This document shows positions 7,446-30,508 of a stretch of DNA of 64,000 nt, piece after piece. The position numbers were made by a program, and so were the translations under genes. Source of the stretch: a bacterium (GTDB lineage: Bacteria > Patescibacteriota > Minisyncoccia > UBA6257 > JAUSGH01); contig JAUSGH010000019.1 in the NCBI GenBank assembly GCA_030649055.1, positions 1,454 to 65,453 on the forward strand. The letters run 5' to 3'. The notes beneath the pieces are model-generated. The model saw only the letters and a list, made by a program, of their open reading frames with translations. It made no database searches and was not told where the DNA came from. Numbering within the stretch: position 1 is the stretch's first letter; each line of letters starts with the position of its first letter.

Positions 7446-7501
7446 GCTTGCCCGACGTGAATGTGGCAGGCGGGCTTGCCCGACGTGAATGTGGCAGGCG
7501 G
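7446..7501 (+). repeat. perfect 28-bp tandem duplication GCTTGCCCGACGTGAATGTGGCAGGCGG in rRNA leader
   Basis: Two identical adjacent copies. Confidence 0.7.
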
Positions 7502-8618
7502 GTCTGTACGACCGGCGGGGCTTCTGCCGGTCAGAACATCGATTGAACCGACCGAACGTTCCGAACTGAATATTAGAAGCACTAAAAGTAAAAAAATGAA
7601 TGTAACATAGAATGTTTCTATTACGGTGAGCTTGTCGAACCGCTGGAAATTTTCTATGTTACCCCAAATCTGTTCCGAAGGTGGGCGTTTCGCCGACTGT
7701 GTGCACTCGTGCACATTCGAGGCGAGCCGCGAACCTTCTTTCGAGGATTTGATCCTGGTCCAGGATGAACGCTGGCGGCGTGGATAAGGCATGCAAGTCG
7801 AACGGTCGAGCGCACGTTGCGCTCGGTAGTGGCAAACGAGTTAGTAACGCCCTGGTACGTACCCCCGAGTCGGGCATAATTCCGCGAAAGCGGGACTAAT
7901 TCCCGATGGTGTCGCCTTAGGCGACTAAAGGAGCGATTCGCTCGGGGAGCGGCCTAGGTCCTATCAGCTAGTTGGTGAGGTAAAAGCTCACCAAGGCTAC
8001 GACGGGTAGGGGGGGTGAGAGCCCGATCCCCAACGAGGAGACTGAGACACGGCTCCTACACCTACGGGTGGCAGCAGTCGAGAATATTCGACAATGGGCG
8101 AAAGCCTGATCGAGCGACGCCGCGTGCAGGATGAAGGTCTTAGGATTGTAAACTGCTTTTCTACGGGAAGAAGTGTGCGTAGCACACAGTTTGTTAGTTC
8201 GTCAGTTACGCTTCGCTCTAGTTTATTAGTTGGTGAAACTAATTAACTAGCAAACGAACAGCGAGCGGAGCGAGCGGAACTAGTCAACTATGTGCTGCGC
8301 ACATTGACGGTACCGTGGGAATAAGGGGCGGCAAACTTCGTGCCAGCAGCCGCGGTAATACGAAGGCCCCGAGCGTTATCCGGATTCATTGGGCGTAAAG
8401 GGCGCGTAGGAGGTTCGGTCCGTCTCTCGTGAAATCTCGGAGCTCAACTCCGAACCCGCGGGGGAAACCGCCGAACTAGAGGGTGTTAGAGGCAGATGGA
8501 ACACACGGTGTAGGGGTGAAATCCGTTGATATCGTGTGGAACACCAAAGGCGAAGGCATTCTGCTGGGACACTCCTGACTCTGAGGCGCGAAAGCGTGGG
8601 GAGCAAAAAGGATTAGAT

Positions 8619-9690
8619 AAATCCCGTTCCGGCTCCAAAGAAACGGAACAAAGGGTGTCCCCTCCGACGGCGACGTCGGGGTGCGCATTCAGCTATATCG
8701 GGGAAGGCCGTCTTGTCAGGCGGTTAATCCCGAGGGAAGTTATTCAAGCCTCACTTTCGACTCTTTAATTATAGAGAAAAGTGGAGCTTGTGTAACCCCG
8801 TAGAGACTATGTAAGTAAGAAAATAGAAAATGACCAAGTCATTTTTGTTGGATCGATGTAAGGAAATTATTCTGGGTTCTTTGTTGGGTGATGGGTCCTT
8901 AAAGATCTATAAGCCCTACAAAAATGCCCGATTTTCCTTTCGACATTCGGTACATCAAAAAGATTATTTTTTCTGGAAAGTTGAAGAATTAAAAGAAATT
9001 TCCGGAGAGAAATCTTTTTGGGAACAAAAACCGAATAGTTTGGGAGGAGATATGTTGCGATACCAAAGTTTAGCATTAGAATTGCTTACGGAACTGCATC
9101 GGCTGACTTACGAGCATAATTGTCTCGTAATACGTCGAAAATGGCTGAACATGATGACGCCATTATCGCTTGCGATTTGGTGGCTTGATGATGGTTCGCT
9201 TATTGGCAATGGAAAGCGAGGTGTGTTTTGTACCGACCCGTTTTCGTTTCATGAACAAGAGATTTTATCGCAGTATTTACTCAAGGTTTGGAAAGTAAAA
9301 ACTGCGATTGGAAAAATTGTCCGCGAGCGGGAAGGAAAAAAAGTTGAGTACTATCGGCTATGGATTCGTTCAAGCGAAGAATTAAAAAAATTTCTTCGGA
9401 TAATCCTCCCCGAAATACCATCCGCATCTACATTGCCTAAAGTTCTTATTCTTTACAAAGATTCCCAATTACAGCAACGCTGGGTTTCTGAAGTTGTTGA
9501 AGCAACGCATTTTTCTCGAGAGATTATTGAAAGGTATCTTGCTGAGAAAAAAGCGAAATATAAGCGATTTCAGAAAATGATATAGTCCGATCCTCCGAGT
9601 AATCGGAGCATCTAATAGGTCTAAATCCCTAACGCTTAGGAATTAGGATTTAGAAATTAGAAATTGCAATTTTGCCAAGCAAAATTGTTG
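8619..9690 (+). mobile_element. group I intron in 16S rRNA (inserted after GGAUUAGAU, ends with G before ACCCUUGUAGUCC) carrying a homing endonuclease ORF
   Basis: Exon sequence diverges from the universal 16S at 8619 and resumes at 9691. The intron ends in G. Boundaries are accurate to about 1 nt. Confidence 0.75.
8830..9585 (+). CDS. LAGLIDADG homing endonuclease (two-motif, single-chain) encoded within the 16S intron
   Basis: ILGSLLGDGSL and AIWWLDDGSLIG motifs. Low-GC ORF inside the rRNA gene. Confidence 0.8.
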   Translation: MTKSFLLDRCKEIILGSLLGDGSLKIYKPYKNARFSFRHSVHQKDYFFWKVEELKEISGEKSFWEQKPNSLGGDMLRYQSLALELLTELHRLTYEHNCLVIRRKWLNMMTPLSLAIWWLDDGSLIGNGKRGVFCTDPFSFHEQEILSQYLLKVWKVKTAIGKIVREREGKKVEYYRLWIRSSEELKKFLRIILPEIPSASTLPKVLILYKDSQLQQRWVSEVVEATHFSREIIERYLAEKKAKYKRFQKMI

Positions 9691-9786
9691 ACCCTTGTAG
9701 TCCACGCCCTAAACGATGCTGATTAGCTGTCTCGAGTATCGACCCTCGGGGTGGCGTAGCTAACGCGTTAAATCAGCCGCCTGGGA

Positions 9787-9818
<32 letters not shown>

Positions 9819-9829
9819 AGACGGGGACT

Positions 9830-9864
<35 letters not shown>

Positions 9865-9942
9865 GTAAGCGAAGAACCTTACCAGGGCTTGAAATGCACT
9901 TGAAGACCGGCAGAAACGTCGGTCGTCTCTCAAGGACAAGTG

Positions 9943-9973
<31 letters not shown>

Positions 9974-10828
9974 ATCGTGAGACGTTCCCTTAAGTGGGGT
10001 AACGAGCGCAACCCCTCTCTGGTGTTATAAGTGTCACCGGAAACCGCCCCCGTTTTTGCCCGCAAGCAATGAAATGCTTGTGTTCAAAAACGGGGGAGGA
10101 AGGCGGGGATGACGTCAAATCCGCATGGCCCTCTGATGCCCTGGGCCACACACGTGCTACAATGGCCGTTACAAAGGGTTGCCAAGCCGCAAGGCGGAGC
10201 TAATCCCAAAAACACGGCCCCAGTTCAGATTGGAGGCTGCAACTCGCCTCCATGAAGTTGGAATCGCTAGTAATCGTAGGTCAGCTACACTACGGTGAAT
10301 ACGTTCTCGAGTCCTGTACTCACCGCCCGTCAAGCCAGCGGAGTCGGTAATACCTGAAGCCCAGCACTTTGTTCGCAACGCAGTTGTTAACAAAGTGCTG
10401 GGTAAGGGTAGGATCGATGATGAGGGCTAAGTCGTAACAAGGCACGCGTAGCGGAAGCTGTGCGTGGATCATCTACATAAACTTCTATAATTTTTGTTAT
10501 AGAACATAATAGATCGGAGCGCGTCGAAAGGCGCGCGTATGGCGTTCGTCGATGAGCCAAAAGTCTCGACGCGGACTTGCTTTCTGATGAAGCAAGGTTG
10601 GGATAACGCAAAAGTTTTTGATCCTTAGTTTTTACAAAAAATGCGAATGAGGCATTGCGCTCTCTTTCGCGTTTTTTGGTTGTCGTGTAACATAGAATAC
10701 ATGCCCCGTGCTACAACTTCGATGGCGCATAAGCGCGTAGAGATAGGCGAAGTCGGCGCGGAACAAGAGATGCTCTTAACATCAACGACAACCCATTATC
10801 AACATCAATCGAAGTTGTAGCACAGGGT

Positions 10829-11969: not shown

Positions 11970-12560
11970 ATGACGCTCGCTGCAGCATATAGCATTGCAG
12001 TGCTTGTCATACTCATTGGGACGGTAGCCTTGGGCTACCGTCCTTTTGTGGTCGGACGCCCACGCTTTTTTGCCTCGGCAATTATTGCCGGACTTTTTAT
12101 TTTGCTCGGCGTTGAGGCGGCGACTCAATATCACGCGTGGACGCTTTCCGCTCCGCAGAAGTTTTTGCTACCACCGCATCAACCTATTGGATACTTCTTC
12201 ACATATGTCGGATGGCGACTGTTCGCGCCTTACATTCTCTCGCTTCTTGTCGCGCTTGTGATGGTGGCGCTGGCGCGGATATATAATAGGCGGCACGACG
12301 GCGCGTTTTTCTATGACGATGAATTTTTTATGATCGGACTTGGCCTTTTTCTTTCGGGAACTCCGGGTTGGATATTGTACGCGGTTTCAATGATTGCTGT
12401 CGCGGCGGCCATTATCGCGTTTCGGACGGTTTTTTTGCATCATTCTGATAAGTTTTCGCTGCGTGAGTTATGGCTGCCCGTCGCGCTCTTTGATATACTG
12501 ATATATACATGGGGTGCACAGTTGCCGGTGCTTCGATTAATGCAATTTGCAGCGCCATAG
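11970..12560 (+). CDS. polytopic membrane protein, possible prepilin peptidase (A24-like) by position
   Basis: About 6 hydrophobic segments. DDEFFMIGLGLFLSGTPGW loosely resembles the GGGDVKLLAAxGAWLGW box. Sits between the pilin and pilB. Confidence 0.3.
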   Translation: MTLAAAYSIAVLVILIGTVALGYRPFVVGRPRFFASAIIAGLFILLGVEAATQYHAWTLSAPQKFLLPPHQPIGYFFTYVGWRLFAPYILSLLVALVMVALARIYNRRHDGAFFYDDEFFMIGLGLFLSGTPGWILYAVSMIAVAAAIIAFRTVFLHHSDKFSLRELWLPVALFDILIYTWGAQLPVLRLMQFAAP

Positions 12561-12597
12561 GGTCCTGGGGCTTGGGATACCAAGTTCTTTGAAGCGC

Positions 12598-14304
12598 ATG
12601 CGCCAAATTCCTCCGGAACAACTTGAAAAGATTTTACAGCGGGATGGCGTTGTCTCGCCGGCGGACTTTGCCGCGGCGGTCAAGGATGCCGCTCGTTTGG
12701 GCCAGGACGTGGTGCACGTGCTCATCGCGCACGGCATCATTACGTGGGAATATTTTTATGACCTGCTCGCGAAGTTTTTGGGCGTTCCGCGCGCCAACCT
12801 CGGGGGCATCACCATCAACGAGGAATTGTTGCGCAAGCTTCCGGAGGATGTTTCCCGGGAAAAACACGCGATTGTGTTCGGCGAATCCGCAGGGGCTCTT
12901 TTGGTCGCCATGGCGGACCCCAGTGATTTACAAACCATAGATTTTTTACAGCAGTATCTCCAACAGCCGGTTAAGCCATATCTTGCGTCGCAGGATGATT
13001 TGAACCGCGGTTTTTCATTTTACAGCAAGCGTCGTTATGAAGATTTTCAGCGCGCTATAGATGAAAACATTCAGGCGACGCTGCGTCTTAAGGCCGGCGG
13101 AAGCGAAGAGTCCGCCGAAGAGCTCCCTATTGTCGCTATTGTGGATACGATACTTTCGTATGCCGTGGCAATGCGCGCGTCCGATATGCACCTGGAGATT
13201 CTGGAGAGCGAACTGCTGGTGCGCTACCGCATTGACGGCGTGCTGCACGAAGTGATCCGTATGCCGAAGGAAGTGCACAGCGCCGTTATCGCGCGCATCA
13301 AGATTCTTTCCAACTTGAAACTTGATGAACACGCCAAGCCCCAAGACGGACGGTTTCGCTACAAAATCGGCGATGACAATGTGGACGTCCGTATTTCGGT
13401 GATGCCGACGCTGTATGGTGAAAAAATCGTGGGGAGAATTTTGACCGCCACGCAGCGGCCGCTGTCGTTTGAAGAAATCGGCATGTTGCCGGACACTGTC
13501 GCGATTATCAGGGAAAATATTTCCAAGGCGTACGGGATGGTCTTGGCGTGCGGACCGACCGGCTCCGGAAAAACCACGACGCTATACGCTGTTCTTACCA
13601 CATTGAATCGTCCGGAGGTGAACATCGTGACCATTGAAGATCCAATTGAGTTCGGTATTCCCAATGTGAACCAGACGCAAATTAATCCCGATGCGGGCAT
13701 CACGTTCGCGGCGGGGCTCCGGTCGATTGTGCGCCAGGACCCGAACGTTATTATGGTCGGCGAAATCCGCGATAAGGAAACCGCGGAAATTTCCGTGCAT
13801 TCGGCGCTTACGGGCTCCTTAGTGCTTTCAACGCTGCACACCAACGATGCCGCGACCGCGGTGCCGCGGCTCTTGGATATCGGCATCGCGCCGTTTTTGG
13901 TCGCGGCGGTGCTGAACCTTGTTGTCGGTCAGCGTCTGGTGCGGCGTATTTGCCTTGACTGCATTGAGTCTTATGAGCCGGATGCGGCGACAGCGAGCGC
14001 GATCGTGGCGCAGTTTCAAACTATGGGCATTGTTACCGCGTACAAGCCGCCGAAACTGATGTATCGCGGCGCGGGATGTGAGCGTTGTGGGCACATCGGT
14101 TATCGCGGACGGTTCGGTATTTATGAGTTGCTGCAGATCTCCGAATCCACCCGCCGGATGCTTGTTTCTTCGGATTTTTCTCTTGATGGGTTGCGGAAAA
14201 CGGCGCGTGAAGAGGGGATGATTACCATGTTTGAAGATGGCCTGCGCAAAGTCGAGCGTGGGATGACCACCATCGAAGAAGTGTTCAGAGTGATAAGAGA
14301 ATAA
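12598..14304 (+). CDS. pilB: type IV pilus assembly ATPase PilB (GspE family)
   Basis: Walker A GPTGSGKTTT, Asp box, His box, tetracysteine CLDC...CERCGH. Confidence 0.9.
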   Translation: MRQIPPEQLEKILQRDGVVSPADFAAAVKDAARLGQDVVHVLIAHGIITWEYFYDLLAKFLGVPRANLGGITINEELLRKLPEDVSREKHAIVFGESAGALLVAMADPSDLQTIDFLQQYLQQPVKPYLASQDDLNRGFSFYSKRRYEDFQRAIDENIQATLRLKAGGSEESAEELPIVAIVDTILSYAVAMRASDMHLEILESELLVRYRIDGVLHEVIRMPKEVHSAVIARIKILSNLKLDEHAKPQDGRFRYKIGDDNVDVRISVMPTLYGEKIVGRILTATQRPLSFEEIGMLPDTVAIIRENISKAYGMVLACGPTGSGKTTTLYAVLTTLNRPEVNIVTIEDPIEFGIPNVNQTQINPDAGITFAAGLRSIVRQDPNVIMVGEIRDKETAEISVHSALTGSLVLSTLHTNDAATAVPRLLDIGIAPFLVAAVLNLVVGQRLVRRICLDCIESYEPDAATASAIVAQFQTMGIVTAYKPPKLMYRGAGCERCGHIGYRGRFGIYELLQISESTRRMLVSSDFSLDGLRKTAREEGMITMFEDGLRKVERGMTTIEEVFRVIRE

Positions 14305-28213: not shown

Positions 28214-30508
28214 ATGGCAAAAAAGTCGCTCACGAAAGCAAAGGTTTCAAAAAAGGTTGCGGTGTCGAAGGTGTTTCAGTTCACGCGAAAACGCGATGGC
28301 CGGATTGTTCCATTTGATCAAACGCGCATCACCGAAGCGTTATTGAAAGCGCTCCATGCCTCGGGCGAGGGTAATGGACGGGATGCAAAAAAGATTTCCG
28401 ACCGCGTGGTGAAAGTTCTGTTGAAAAAGTTTTCTCCAACCTATGTGTTGAGCATTGAAGAGATTCAGGATTCCGCGGAAAATGCCCTTATCCTCCTTGA
28501 TTACGCAAAAACCGCGAAGGCATATATTTTGTATCGTAAAGAACGCGAGCGGTTGCGCGAAGCGCGCAAAGAAGTGCCGGCGGCGGTGAAACAGCTGGTC
28601 GCCGCGAGTAAAAAGTATTTCAAAAATCCGCTGGCGGAGTTTGTATATTACCGCACCTATTCGCGCTGGATTGACGAAGATGGTCGCCGCGAGACTTGGA
28701 TTGAGACCGCGGGACGCTATATGGCTTTTATGAAGGAGAATTTGGGCGACAAGCTTTCCGAAAAAGAATATGGCGAAGTCCACGAGGCGATTTTGAACCA
28801 GCAGGCGATGCCGTCCATGCGTTTGTTGCAGTTCGCGGGCAAAGCCGCGCGGAAAACAAATGTCTGCGCCTATAATTGCTCGTTTATCGCGCCGACGCGT
28901 TTTGAAGATTTCGCCGAAATTGTCTATATCTCTATGTGCGGCACGGGTGTAGGGTTTTCCGTGGAGCATCAGAATGTGGAAAAACTTCCGCAAATTGAAC
29001 GGCAAACGGGCGAAAAACTTCCGGACTATGTGATTGAAGACAGCAAGGAAGGATGGGCGGATTCGCTACTTTTCGGCATGAAAACGTGGTTTGCCGGCAA
29101 GGACGTGGTGTTTGACTATTCTGGATTGCGTGCCGCGGGCGTACGGTTGAAAACCATGGGCGGACGATCATCCGGCCCCGCGCCGTTGCACGAACTACTG
29201 GACTTTACACGGCGGAAAATTTTGGCAAAACAGGGGCGACGGCTCGGGACGATTGATGTGCACGACATCATCTGCAAAATCGGCGAGATTGTGGTGTCGG
29301 GCGGCGTGCGCCGCAGTGCCTTGATTTCGCTTTCGGATTTGGACGATCCGGAAATGCGCGACGCGAAGAACGGCCAGTTTTATTTGACCGAACCCCAACG
29401 GAGCTTGGCGAATAACTCGGCGGTCTATAATGAAAAGCCGACCGCGAGCCAGTTTCTGGATGAATGGGTGTCGCTCGCGAAGAGCGGAACAGGGGAGCGC
29501 GGCATCTTTAACCGCGGAGGATTGCACACCATGCTTCCGAAGCGCCGCATTAAGGCGTTGAAGGGATATTTGGGTAACTTGGGTACTAATCCGTGCGGAG
29601 AAATTATTTTGCAGTCGCGGCAATTCTGCAACTTATCTGAAGTGGTGGCGCGCCCCGAAGACACCGAAGCGACGCTTTTGGAAAAAGTGCGCGTCGCGAC
29701 GATTGTGGGCACCTATCAGTCAACGCTCACGAATTTTGGCTATCTTTCCAAAGAGTGGAGGGAAAATTGCGAGGCGGAGCGTTTACTCGGCGTTTCGGTC
29801 ACCGGCCAGTGGGATTGCGAAGCGGCGCGTAACCCCGAAGTGCTTCGCAAGATGCGCGATACGGCAATCCGCGTCAATGAAGAATACGCGAAACGGTTTG
29901 GTGTCGGTGCGTCCACCTGTATCACGTGCGTGAAGCCGTCGGGCAATCTTTCACAAACTGTGGATGCCTCCTCCGGCATGCACACGCGCTATGCGGAGTA
30001 TTATATCCGCCGTGTGCGCATTTCGGCAACGGACAGTTTGTTCAAAATGCTCAAGGATCAGAAACTTCCGTATCATCCGGAAGTGGGGCAGTCGGCGGAC
30101 ACCGCCAATACATATGTCTTGGAGTTTCCGGTTAAGGCTCCCGAGGGAGCGGTGACGCGCAAAGATATCACCGCGCTTGTTCAGCTGGAACACTGGAAGC
30201 TCGTGAAGACTAACTACACCGAGCATAACCCTTCGGTCACGGTGTATGTTGCCGAAAACGAGTGGATCATGGTGGCGAACTGGTTGTATAACAATTGGGA
30301 ATACATCGGCGGCCTCTCGTTCTTGCCGAAGGACAACCACGTGTATGCCTTGGCGCCATACGAAGAAATTACCAAGGAGCGGTACGAGGAGCTTCTCGCG
30401 AAGTTCCCGGACGTTGATTTCTCGCAAATCTTTGTCTACGAGCATCAGGACGAAACGGAAAACGCGAAGGAGCTGGCGTGCGTGGCCGGTGTGTGCGAAA
30501 TTAGCTAG
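28214..30508 (+). CDS. nrdJ: class II (adenosylcobalamin-dependent) ribonucleotide reductase with N-terminal ATP-cone
   Basis: ATP-cone VFQFTRKRDGRIVPFDQTRITEALLKA. Monomeric RNR core with NPCGEI and a C-terminal CxxC. Confidence 0.8.
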   Translation: MAKKSLTKAKVSKKVAVSKVFQFTRKRDGRIVPFDQTRITEALLKALHASGEGNGRDAKKISDRVVKVLLKKFSPTYVLSIEEIQDSAENALILLDYAKTAKAYILYRKERERLREARKEVPAAVKQLVAASKKYFKNPLAEFVYYRTYSRWIDEDGRRETWIETAGRYMAFMKENLGDKLSEKEYGEVHEAILNQQAMPSMRLLQFAGKAARKTNVCAYNCSFIAPTRFEDFAEIVYISMCGTGVGFSVEHQNVEKLPQIERQTGEKLPDYVIEDSKEGWADSLLFGMKTWFAGKDVVFDYSGLRAAGVRLKTMGGRSSGPAPLHELLDFTRRKILAKQGRRLGTIDVHDIICKIGEIVVSGGVRRSALISLSDLDDPEMRDAKNGQFYLTEPQRSLANNSAVYNEKPTASQFLDEWVSLAKSGTGERGIFNRGGLHTMLPKRRIKALKGYLGNLGTNPCGEIILQSRQFCNLSEVVARPEDTEATLLEKVRVATIVGTYQSTLTNFGYLSKEWRENCEAERLLGVSVTGQWDCEAARNPEVLRKMRDTAIRVNEEYAKRFGVGASTCITCVKPSGNLSQTVDASSGMHTRYAEYYIRRVRISATDSLFKMLKDQKLPYHPEVGQSADTANTYVLEFPVKAPEGAVTRKDITALVQLEHWKLVKTNYTEHNPSVTVYVAENEWIMVANWLYNNWEYIGGLSFLPKDNHVYALAPYEEITKERYEELLAKFPDVDFSQIFVYEHQDETENAKELACVAGVCEIS

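Follow-up and report, generated by a model that had tools for sequence, protein, structure and literature searches.

Is the long insert in the 16S rRNA gene of the window (the whole stretch of 64,000 nt that was analysed) a group I intron, and may it still be mobile? The initial annotation had proposed so, placing the points at which the 16S sequence breaks off and resumes 1072 nt apart. The SSU rRNA gene is complete, and its Rfam alignment is continuous except for one insertion of ~1073 nt, at GGAUUAGAUA / CC. The insert is flanked by GGAUUAGAU on the 5' side and ACCCUUGUAGUCC on the 3' side, and its junctions read ...AAAAAGGATTAGAT|AAATCCCG...AAAATTGTTG|ACCCTTGTAGTCC. Syntenic relatives were found through the neighbouring PilB gene (95% amino acid identity), and their 16S genes contain an uninterrupted GGATTAGATACCC. 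In a global alignment to the 16S of these relatives (L084-L086), positions 8619 to 9690 appeared as an exact gap, 1072 nt versus 0, so that both proposed junctions were correct to the base. Since A is both the first intron base and the first base of the 3' exon, the boundary is ambiguous by one nucleotide; of the two options, only the one retained here gives a U at position -1 and a G at the 3' end.

Homologous loci were collected via the protein encoded in the insert, and yielded 57 distinct full introns on independent contigs. The arrangement was the same in all 57: a U at -1, and a terminal G just before ACCC, as the initial annotation had read for the window. All were bounded by GGATTAGAT and ACCC. 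Such a recurrence shows that the insert is neither a chance feature nor an assembly artefact. The insertion site, which we take to be after U793 (E. coli numbering, via the 785F/806R primer site), would be in the 790 loop of helix 24.

The PilB protein of the window has its nearest relatives among proteins labelled Harrisonbacteria, Paceibacterota and Wolfebacteria, and the host is therefore a CPR/Patescibacteria bacterium. By these sequence matches, it is in the Parcubacteria group, with Harrisonbacteria as its closest named relative.

The insert contains a single long ORF, whose 251 codons and two motifs, LLGDGSL (aa 18-24) and WLDDGSL (aa 118-124), were confirmed; the reading frame is intact, as had been supposed. 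The profile search suggested in the initial annotation gave a match to Pfam LAGLIDADG_2 far above the cut-off (119.3 bits versus 25, residues 11-181). The acidic residues at the ends of the two LAGLIDADG helices (D21 in the first, D120 and D121 in the second) and the glycines that follow them were invariant among 22 homologues. By sequence alone, the match to I-SceI-type enzymes in the PDB was weak. An AlphaFold model built from the 22 homologues (pLDDT 91.3, pTM 0.88) was compared with known structures by Foldseek, and the best matches were I-WcaI and I-SceI in their DNA-bound forms (TM 0.64-0.75), in line with the pseudo-dimeric alpha-beta fold of such enzymes; the bI3 maturase was also among the fold matches. 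Like I-SceI and I-WcaI, the protein carries two LAGLIDADG motifs in one chain of ~230-250 aa. It differs from these enzymes, which are encoded by yeast mitochondrial LSU introns and target the LSU rRNA gene, by its low identity (21-22%) and by the domain of its host. Relative to the closest relatives, dN/dS was 0.06-0.1 over codons 1-205, a sign of strong purifying selection on the protein. More than 1000 homologues were found in a large protein collection, and the few named ones belong to Parcubacteria-group CPR (Nealsonbacteria, Wolfebacteria, Paceibacterota). An exact-sequence look-up of the ORF in this collection returned no record, the best homologue being 84% identical.

To analyse the RNA, all core strands of the 54 non-identical introns were aligned in anchored fixed-length segments, which gave 219 gap-free columns, with P7 as a pseudoknot. 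The proposed structure comprises 66 pairs in 10 helices, and 94.2% of the 3564 cells were standard pairs. When the 3' partners were slid by 1-3 columns, this proportion fell to 34.5-44.7%. Changes on both sides were seen in 29 of the 66 pairs, a count that was reached in none of 500 shuffles. Compensatory changes were found in P2, P3, P4, P6a, the helix that occupies the position of P7.1 (hereafter P7.1-like helix), P8 and P9. P1 to P10 are all present. Folding P1 to P9 had been proposed as a check, and a lack of group I core pairings had been named as evidence against an intron; such a lack was looked for, and the full core was found instead, with support from covariation. The identification of the insert as a group I intron is thus supported. 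The positions of all elements are given in Table 1.

Table 1. Features of the interrupted 16S rRNA gene and its insert, with positions in the window.
Feature	Positions	Strand	Basis
Bacterial 16S rRNA host gene, interrupted	7737-10479	+	Rfam RF00177, 1308 bits, model 1-1533
Group I intron, 1072 nt; terminal (omega) G is G9690	8619-9690	+	exact gap versus intron-less relatives
Gene of the two-motif LAGLIDADG homing endonuclease (251 aa)	8830-9585	+	Pfam PF03161, E 2.1e-34
P1 5' strand: GAU, the last three bases of the 5' exon, with U8618 at the 5' splice site	8616-8618	+	pairs with G8657-U8658-C8659
P1 extension: A8619-U8656, C8623-25/G8653-55, hairpin GUUCCG 8626-8631/CGGAAC 8644-8649	8619-8656	+	covariation, MFE
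Internal guide sequence GGGUGUC: GUC with exon GAU (P1), GGGU with 3' exon ACCC 9691-9694 (P10)	8653-8659	+	invariant GUGUCC
P2 hairpin, 8 bp, GCGA tetraloop	8662-8681	+	100% paired; compensatory changes at all 8 pairs
P3 5' strand AUUCAGC	8687-8693	+	partner strand 9479-9485; 100% paired (54 sequences)
P4 (8698-8703/8728-8733), J4/5 AA, P5 (8706-8710/8721-8725), J5/4 AA	8698-8733	+	covariation, MFE
P6 (GGG 8734-36/CCC 8797-99), P6a (8739-42/8793-96), distal P6b/c arm	8734-8799	+	covariation
P7 5' strand G(A)GACUAU, bulged A8804	8803-8810	+	pairs with 9582-9588; 98.9% paired, invariant
P7.1-like helix closing the ORF insertion between P7 and P3', 5' strand	8811-8816	+	pairs with 9467-9472
Putative start-codon-sequestering hairpin, AAAAUGAC / GUCAUUUU	8827-8845	+	read from sequence; conserved in relatives
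P7.1-like helix, 3' strand, within ORF	9467-9472	+	covariation among relatives
P3 3' strand GCUGGGU, over ORF codons Arg-Trp-Val	9479-9485	+	covariation
P8: UCUGAAGU 9487-9494 / AUUUCAGA 9567-9574; 72-nt loop, all coding	9487-9574	+	93.8% paired
J8/7 AAAUGAU and P7 3' strand AUAGUCC; stop UAG 9583-9585 inside P7'	9575-9588	+	Rfam consensus
P9 hairpin, 6 bp, GUAA tetraloop	9593-9608	+	99.7% paired; all 6 pairs compensatory
Peripheral hairpins P9.1 (9620-9654) and P9.2 (9667-9687)	9620-9687	+	MFE fold, 3' alignment

P1, P7 and P10 were invariant, so that covariation cannot probe them; for P1 and P10, this is because the exons themselves are invariant. P1 has only three exon pairs, and these (G-C, A-U and U.G) were present in all 54 introns. 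In its extension, the CC/GG pairs were nearly invariant and the arms of the hairpin covaried among relatives; the hairpin also formed in the MFE fold of a mini-intron. The GUGUCC part of the guide was the same in all relatives. For P10, the U-A, G-C and G-C pairs were found in 53-54 of the 54 introns, and a fourth pair in 11, including that of the window, where P10 is therefore 4 bp long. P4 was 99.4% paired with one compensatory position, and the MFE fold formed P4-P5. P6 and P6a were 98.7% paired, with three covarying pairs. In P7, G8803-C9588, the bulged A8804, G8805-C9587 and A8806-U9586 were all invariant. This succession (G-C, bulged A, G-C, A-U) matches the guanosine-site pattern of the Tetrahymena P7, and G8805-C9587 is the presumed guanosine-binding site. 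The 5' non-coding part also contains textbook examples of the P, Q and R elements (CUAUAUCGGGGAA; AAUCCCGAGGGAAG; CCCCGUAGAGACUAU).

Part of the core is located inside the ORF. P3' is not adjacent to P7, it lies ~670 nt downstream of it, within the coding sequence. Pairing of its two strands is maintained by substitutions: AUUCAGC/GCUGGGU in the window is replaced in relatives by AUCUAGC/GCUGGAU, by AUCCAAC/GUUGGAU (L001, L034), or by ACCCAAC/GUUGGGU (L003, a homologue described below). A G-C pair was changed to A-U in three sequences, and a U-A pair to C-G in L003; these compensatory changes fall at synonymous or conservative codon positions. The P7.1-like helix starts directly after P7, and its 3' partner segment is just upstream of P3'. 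It is 4-5 bp long in the window and reaches up to 12 bp in relatives, with many compensatory changes (strands UGUAAAUCAAUA/UAUUGAUUUACA in L056, UGCAAUUC/GAAUUGCA in L049 and GAGCGCGUG/CACGCGCUC in L003). P9.1 and P9.2 were present only in a subset of relatives.

These data show that the first ~640 nt of the ORF are contained in the loop of the helix between P7 and P3', and that its last ~117 nt double as P7.1', P3', P8, L8, P8', J8/7 and P7'. Two facts are in keeping with this dual use. First, the 3' end UUCAGARAAUGAUAUAG is kept even though relatives translate it in two different frames (...FQKMI* versus ...FRE*/FRK*). Second, dS is depressed in codons 206-251, which overlap the ribozyme core. 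At the other end of the ORF, a conserved hairpin may sequester the start codon.

A mutual-information scan of the anchored segments recovered only P9 and the P7.1-like helix; P3 was missed because it is too conserved. The standard Rfam group I model (RF00028), used with a permissive threshold, gave 24.6 bits (E 8e-4) on 9336-9609, below its gathering score of 50. The 3' part of this alignment is convincing: it has AACGCUGGG as P3', the same P8 strands as those found here, GAUAUAGUCC and a GNRA-capped P9. The J8/7-P7' segment agrees with the Rfam consensus AAGAUAUAGUC. The 5' part of the alignment was forced into the ORF. At the gathering threshold, no match to RF00028 was obtained in nine relatives, and an Rfam search with the 5' half of the intron alone returned nothing. 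The weak score is due to the large loop of ~650 nt that separates P7 from P3' and holds most of the ORF; because of it, the model misplaced its own 5' half.

Several other placements were tried and rejected. Directly downstream of P7 (GUAAGUAAGAAGAUAG...), candidates of 4-8 bp for P3' and P8 (AUCU/AGAU, CAUC/GAUG, CUAU/AUAG, and GUGCGC/GCGCGU, specific to L003) did not hold up in relatives or repeatedly showed A.A mismatches. GGUGUCC was tried as the 5' strand of P3, by analogy with the Azoarcus intron; it has no complement after P7, and L003 folds GAU|ACU-ACAA-AGUGUC as a neat P1. Insertion of the ORF in J8/7, or a P8 formed by the start-codon hairpin (from the AGAAAAUGA repeat, present at both ends of the ORF), was superseded by the P3 and P8 found inside the ORF. 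A complementarity between the 5' strand of P3 and mid-ORF KWLN codons was treated as chance. Finally, J3/4 (CUAUAUC) is complementary over 7 bp to J8/7 (GAUAUAG), a possible alternative pairing that was not adopted.

By its anatomy, the intron is a candidate member of subgroup IA (IA3-like). P5 is short and one covarying helix occupies the P7.1/P7.2 position, between P7 and P3'. Subgroup IA members such as the phage Twort intron and the L2593 rRNA introns likewise have an extra helix at this place, together with a short P5 and only one P2, which is also short; in one L2593 intron, the P7 region is described as extended by "P7.1 and P7.2" (PMC1995217). In contrast to these, the present intron has one helix instead of two, and its loop holds most of the 753-nt ORF. 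ORFs that reach into the ribozyme core are uncommon but have been described (PMC1995217). In the Synechococcus 23S introns of that report, as here, coding sequence doubles as P7, P3 and P8, so that these nucleotides are constrained twice over; those introns differ in residing in the 23S gene, at other sites, and in their IC1-like subgroup.

Taken together, these results make it very probable that the insert is a mobile group I intron, located in the 790 loop of the 16S and encoding an I-SceI-type LAGLIDADG enzyme that is monomeric and has two motifs, from which we infer canonical splicing and homing. After the intron had folded into its group I core, attack by an external guanosine would take place after U8618, in the U.G wobble of P1. 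The terminal G9690 would then dock into the P7 pocket, and the exons, aligned on the guide GGGUGUC by P1 and P10, would be ligated, which would restore GGAUUAGAUACCC with a spliced junction reading GGAUUAGAU-ACCCUUG. The enzyme presumably cuts intron-less 16S alleles at the same universal sequence (presumed target AAAGGATTAGATACCCTTGTAGTCC / GGATTAGATACCCTTGTAGTCC / AAAGGATTAGATACCCTTGTAGTCCA), and repair of the cut would copy the intron in. It may double as a maturase. Because the ORF includes P3', P8 and P7', its translation might hamper folding of the RNA. The proposed splicing, cleavage and maturase activities are deduced here from the sequence.

Its distribution was consistent with mobility. 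The uninterrupted site in the syntenic relatives L084-L086 shows that the intron is polymorphic, and hosts that share only 75-87% identity in the flanking 16S carry an intron at this same site. The similarity of the hosts, measured on the exons, was weakly correlated with that of the endonucleases (r = 0.25). The empty sites in close relatives, the divergent occupied hosts and this weak correlation suit a homing element. With an intact ORF under purifying selection, the earlier suggestion that the element may still be mobile is reasonable.

One homologue is L003, whose endonuclease shares 51% amino acid identity with that of the window. It occupies the same 16S site and has a complete core with compensatory changes. 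Its host gene scores as an archaeal SSU rRNA (1398 bits), with a tRNA gene and an archaeal LSU gene downstream; the contig is labelled Hadarchaeales. A tentative idea, conceivable at present rather than probable, is that the introns found at this site (16S-793 family) form a structurally distinct lineage, marked by an ORF within the helix between P7 and P3' and by coding 3' sequence that also serves as P3', P8, J8/7 and P7'. Such a lineage would be largely missed by current models and would move between CPR and Archaea (Hadarchaeales) via one universal 16S target. If true, some of the inserts in CPR rRNA genes that now carry the label "LAGLIDADG, no intron detected" would turn out to be group I introns, and homing across domains at the 16S-793 site would be new.

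A different view of the element is that it does not self-splice and depends on its LAGLIDADG protein as maturase, or on a host factor, the endonuclease activity being perhaps lost and the intron immobile and inherited vertically. LAGLIDADG maturases are known, and bI3 is one of the fold matches reported above. The short P1 (3 bp), the weak P7.1-like helix that has to close a ~650-nt loop in the window, and the overlap of the core by the ORF would all suit such a dependence, and purifying selection fits a maturase as well as an endonuclease. However, the guanosine-site pair, J4/5, J8/7 and the terminal G are canonical. Moreover, the invariant Asp residues of both catalytic motifs, the occupation of one site in very divergent hosts including an archaeon, the empty site in syntenic relatives and the weak correlation between host and endonuclease similarity point to continuing homing. 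We therefore consider an immobile, maturase-dependent intron unlikely.

It is very improbable that the insert is kept in the mature 16S as an expansion segment, or that it is excised without ligation, like an intervening sequence processed by RNase III, so as to leave a fragmented 16S, as it interrupts the universally conserved 790 loop. A ribosome could hardly function with an additional 1 kb of RNA, or with a break, at this place. Nor would there be any role for a complete group I core backed by covariation, for the U at -1 or for the terminal G. CPR rRNA genes do contain many non-intron inserts (PMC11270868), and several are present in this 16S, but in metatranscriptomes such CPR inserts were absent from the rRNA (Brown 2015, as related in PMC9698310).

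Another LAGLIDADG-bearing intron type is scarcely credible: LAGLIDADG genes do occur in archaeal rRNA bulge-helix-bulge introns and in the CPR group II introns at 16S position 1400 (PMC11270868), and one homologue, L003, is in an archaeal 16S, but the host is a bacterium, a group II match was sought in the intron with Rfam and not found, conservation is seen in the group I motifs P, Q, R and S, with a supported P3/P7 pseudoknot, and L003 itself retains this same core.

A mobile group I intron is thus the preferred reading, and it is ordinary for the clade, since CPR 16S group I introns with LAGLIDADG ORFs have already been described (Brown 2015; Tsurumaki 2024). According to PMC9698310, Brown and co-workers found inserts in 31% of CPR 16S genes, with metatranscriptomic evidence of their removal. 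Tsurumaki et al. 2024 (PMC11270868) report 134 group I introns in 378 16S inserts, together with 53 LAGLIDADG_2 ORFs; 43 of these ORFs belong to recognised group I introns, and the other 10 to inserts without an intron match. One such enzyme was shown to cut its own insertion site. The present intron resembles the described ones in host clade, gene, ribozyme class and Pfam endonuclease family (Brown 2015; PMC11270868), as well as in its highly conserved rRNA stretch and in the scattering of occupied and empty sites over the host phylogeny (PMC11270868); the named homologues, too, stem from genomes of the kinds in which those introns occur. A difference is that the introns of PMC11270868 were detected with the Rfam model, which the 16S-793 family fails at gathering. 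For this reason, members of the family may be present among the LAGLIDADG_2 inserts for which that paper lists neither a group I nor a group II intron match.

Outside this clade, self-splicing group I introns of subgroups IA3, IC1 and ID are known in the 16S of Thiomargarita (Salman et al. 2012, as cited in PMC4853749). These are likewise bacterial 16S introns, some with homing endonuclease genes, which disturb PCR surveys; their hosts belong to a different phylum. In the present case, the intron splits the 785F/806R universal primer site, so that carriers would drop from 16S amplicon surveys or give over-long products, an effect that is already appreciated.

What is added here is a covariation-backed secondary structure for an intron family, which explains why Rfam under-scores it as group I; a dedicated covariance model would improve the annotation of CPR rRNA genes. 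The family also provides a clear case of coding sequence and ribozyme core on the same nucleotides, and extends to an archaeal 16S gene, where it occupies this same site. As for the host gene of the window, no 23S, 5S or tRNA gene is linked to it within the 64 kb, and its alignment to relatives revealed several insertions other than the intron.

A homologue of the window's intron is inserted at the identical 16S position of an archaeal rRNA operon (L003:2355–3273, contig JAVZGN010000026.1, from a Hadarchaeales MAG), whose order is archaeal SSU (1398 bits), tRNA, archaeal LSU. The group I core of this intron is complete, and its endonuclease is 51% identical to that of the window. Because Nawrocki et al. 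(2018) give archaeal SSU group I introns at SSU/1498 only, the insertion point in L003 may be unreported in archaea, and the element may be cross-domain.

Several complementarities between intron and exons were found outside the canonical core. In the window, the 3' peripheral hairpin P9.1 (9620–9654) has one arm, UCUAAAUCC, complementary to GGAUU(U)AGA of the 5' exon, and a second arm that resembles the exon itself. P9.1 and the neighbouring hairpin P9.2 are absent from most relatives, where the intron terminates in UCUACAAGAUG, which complements CUUGUAG in the 3' exon. The same kind of complementarity links AAUCC(UU), at the 5' end of the intron, to (AA)GGAUU of the 5' exon. The 5' non-coding part is much longer in the homologous introns L043, L048, L044, L045 and L030 (280–480 nt, versus about 175–210 nt), and a different 5' segment replaces the AAAUCC start in L035 and L048. 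Judging by this variation in length and starting segment, extra peripheral domains are gained and lost across the family of introns inserted at this position (793 site).

The sequence AGAAAAUGA is present twice, at the start and at the end of the endonuclease ORF. An arm UCAUUUU (window 8839–8845) is able to pair with either copy, and is therefore compatible with local sequestering of the start codon or with a long-range pairing adjoining the core junction J8/7. Such an arrangement might act as a splicing/translation switch, or be the scar left by insertion of the ORF.

Three syntenic relatives of the window (L084–L086) are intron-less at the 793 site. Their PilB proteins are identical to one another, unlike their 16S genes, which differ among themselves and share just 84–91% identity with the window 16S. 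Such differing 16S genes, despite identical PilB, suggest that the stretch upstream of the pilus genes is variable or recombined in these relatives. Near its 16S 5' end, L086 carries about 330 nt of inserts, including a 92-aa GIY-YIG ORF; the insert bearing it is an rRNA insert other than the 793-site intron, in an otherwise syntenic locus. In L084, L085, L086 and a further relative, L087, Rfam gives a marginal match to group-II-D1D4-1 (35.1 bits in L084, versus a gathering threshold of 35) some 230 nt past the 3' end of the 16S. Downstream of the window 16S, where the spacer is shorter, Rfam gave no such match.

No tRNA, 23S or 5S gene was found in the 64 kb of the window (1–64000), and its 16S is therefore solitary; type IV pilus genes and a ribonucleotide reductase gene are among its neighbours. 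Compared with relatives, this 16S contains three additional inserts, without ORF or intron signature. Its V3/helix 17 region has about 124 nt extra (120 nt by Rfam, versus 7 in the model), and two extended hairpins have arms of 25 nt and 20 nt.

The 13-nt direct repeat TGTAACATAGAAT lies on either side of the 16S gene, its upstream copy being also within a 17-nt inverted repeat; these repeats may serve in processing or as promoter elements. A 28-nt unit, GCTTGCCCGACGTGAATGTGGCAGGCGG, is perfectly duplicated in tandem some 240 nt upstream of the gene.

Coordinates of features in the window and its syntenic relatives
Feature	Position	Remark
Intron-less 793 site	L084:4698–4710; L085:4691–4703; L086:4698–4710	PilB 95% identical to the window's
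Inserts with GIY-YIG ORF	L086:3821–4150	
group-II-D1D4-1 match	L084:5614–5694	
Tandem 28-nt unit	window 7446–7501	
13-nt direct repeat	window 7601–7613, 10686–10698	
17-nt inverted repeat	window 7602–7618 / 7646–7662	
Extra 16S inserts	window 8165–8304, 10044–10099, 10360–10402	versus relatives
AGAAAAUGA copies	window 8825–8840, 9572–9587	
PilB	window 12547–14304	type IV pilus genes
Ribonucleotide reductase	window 28214–30508	B12-dependent
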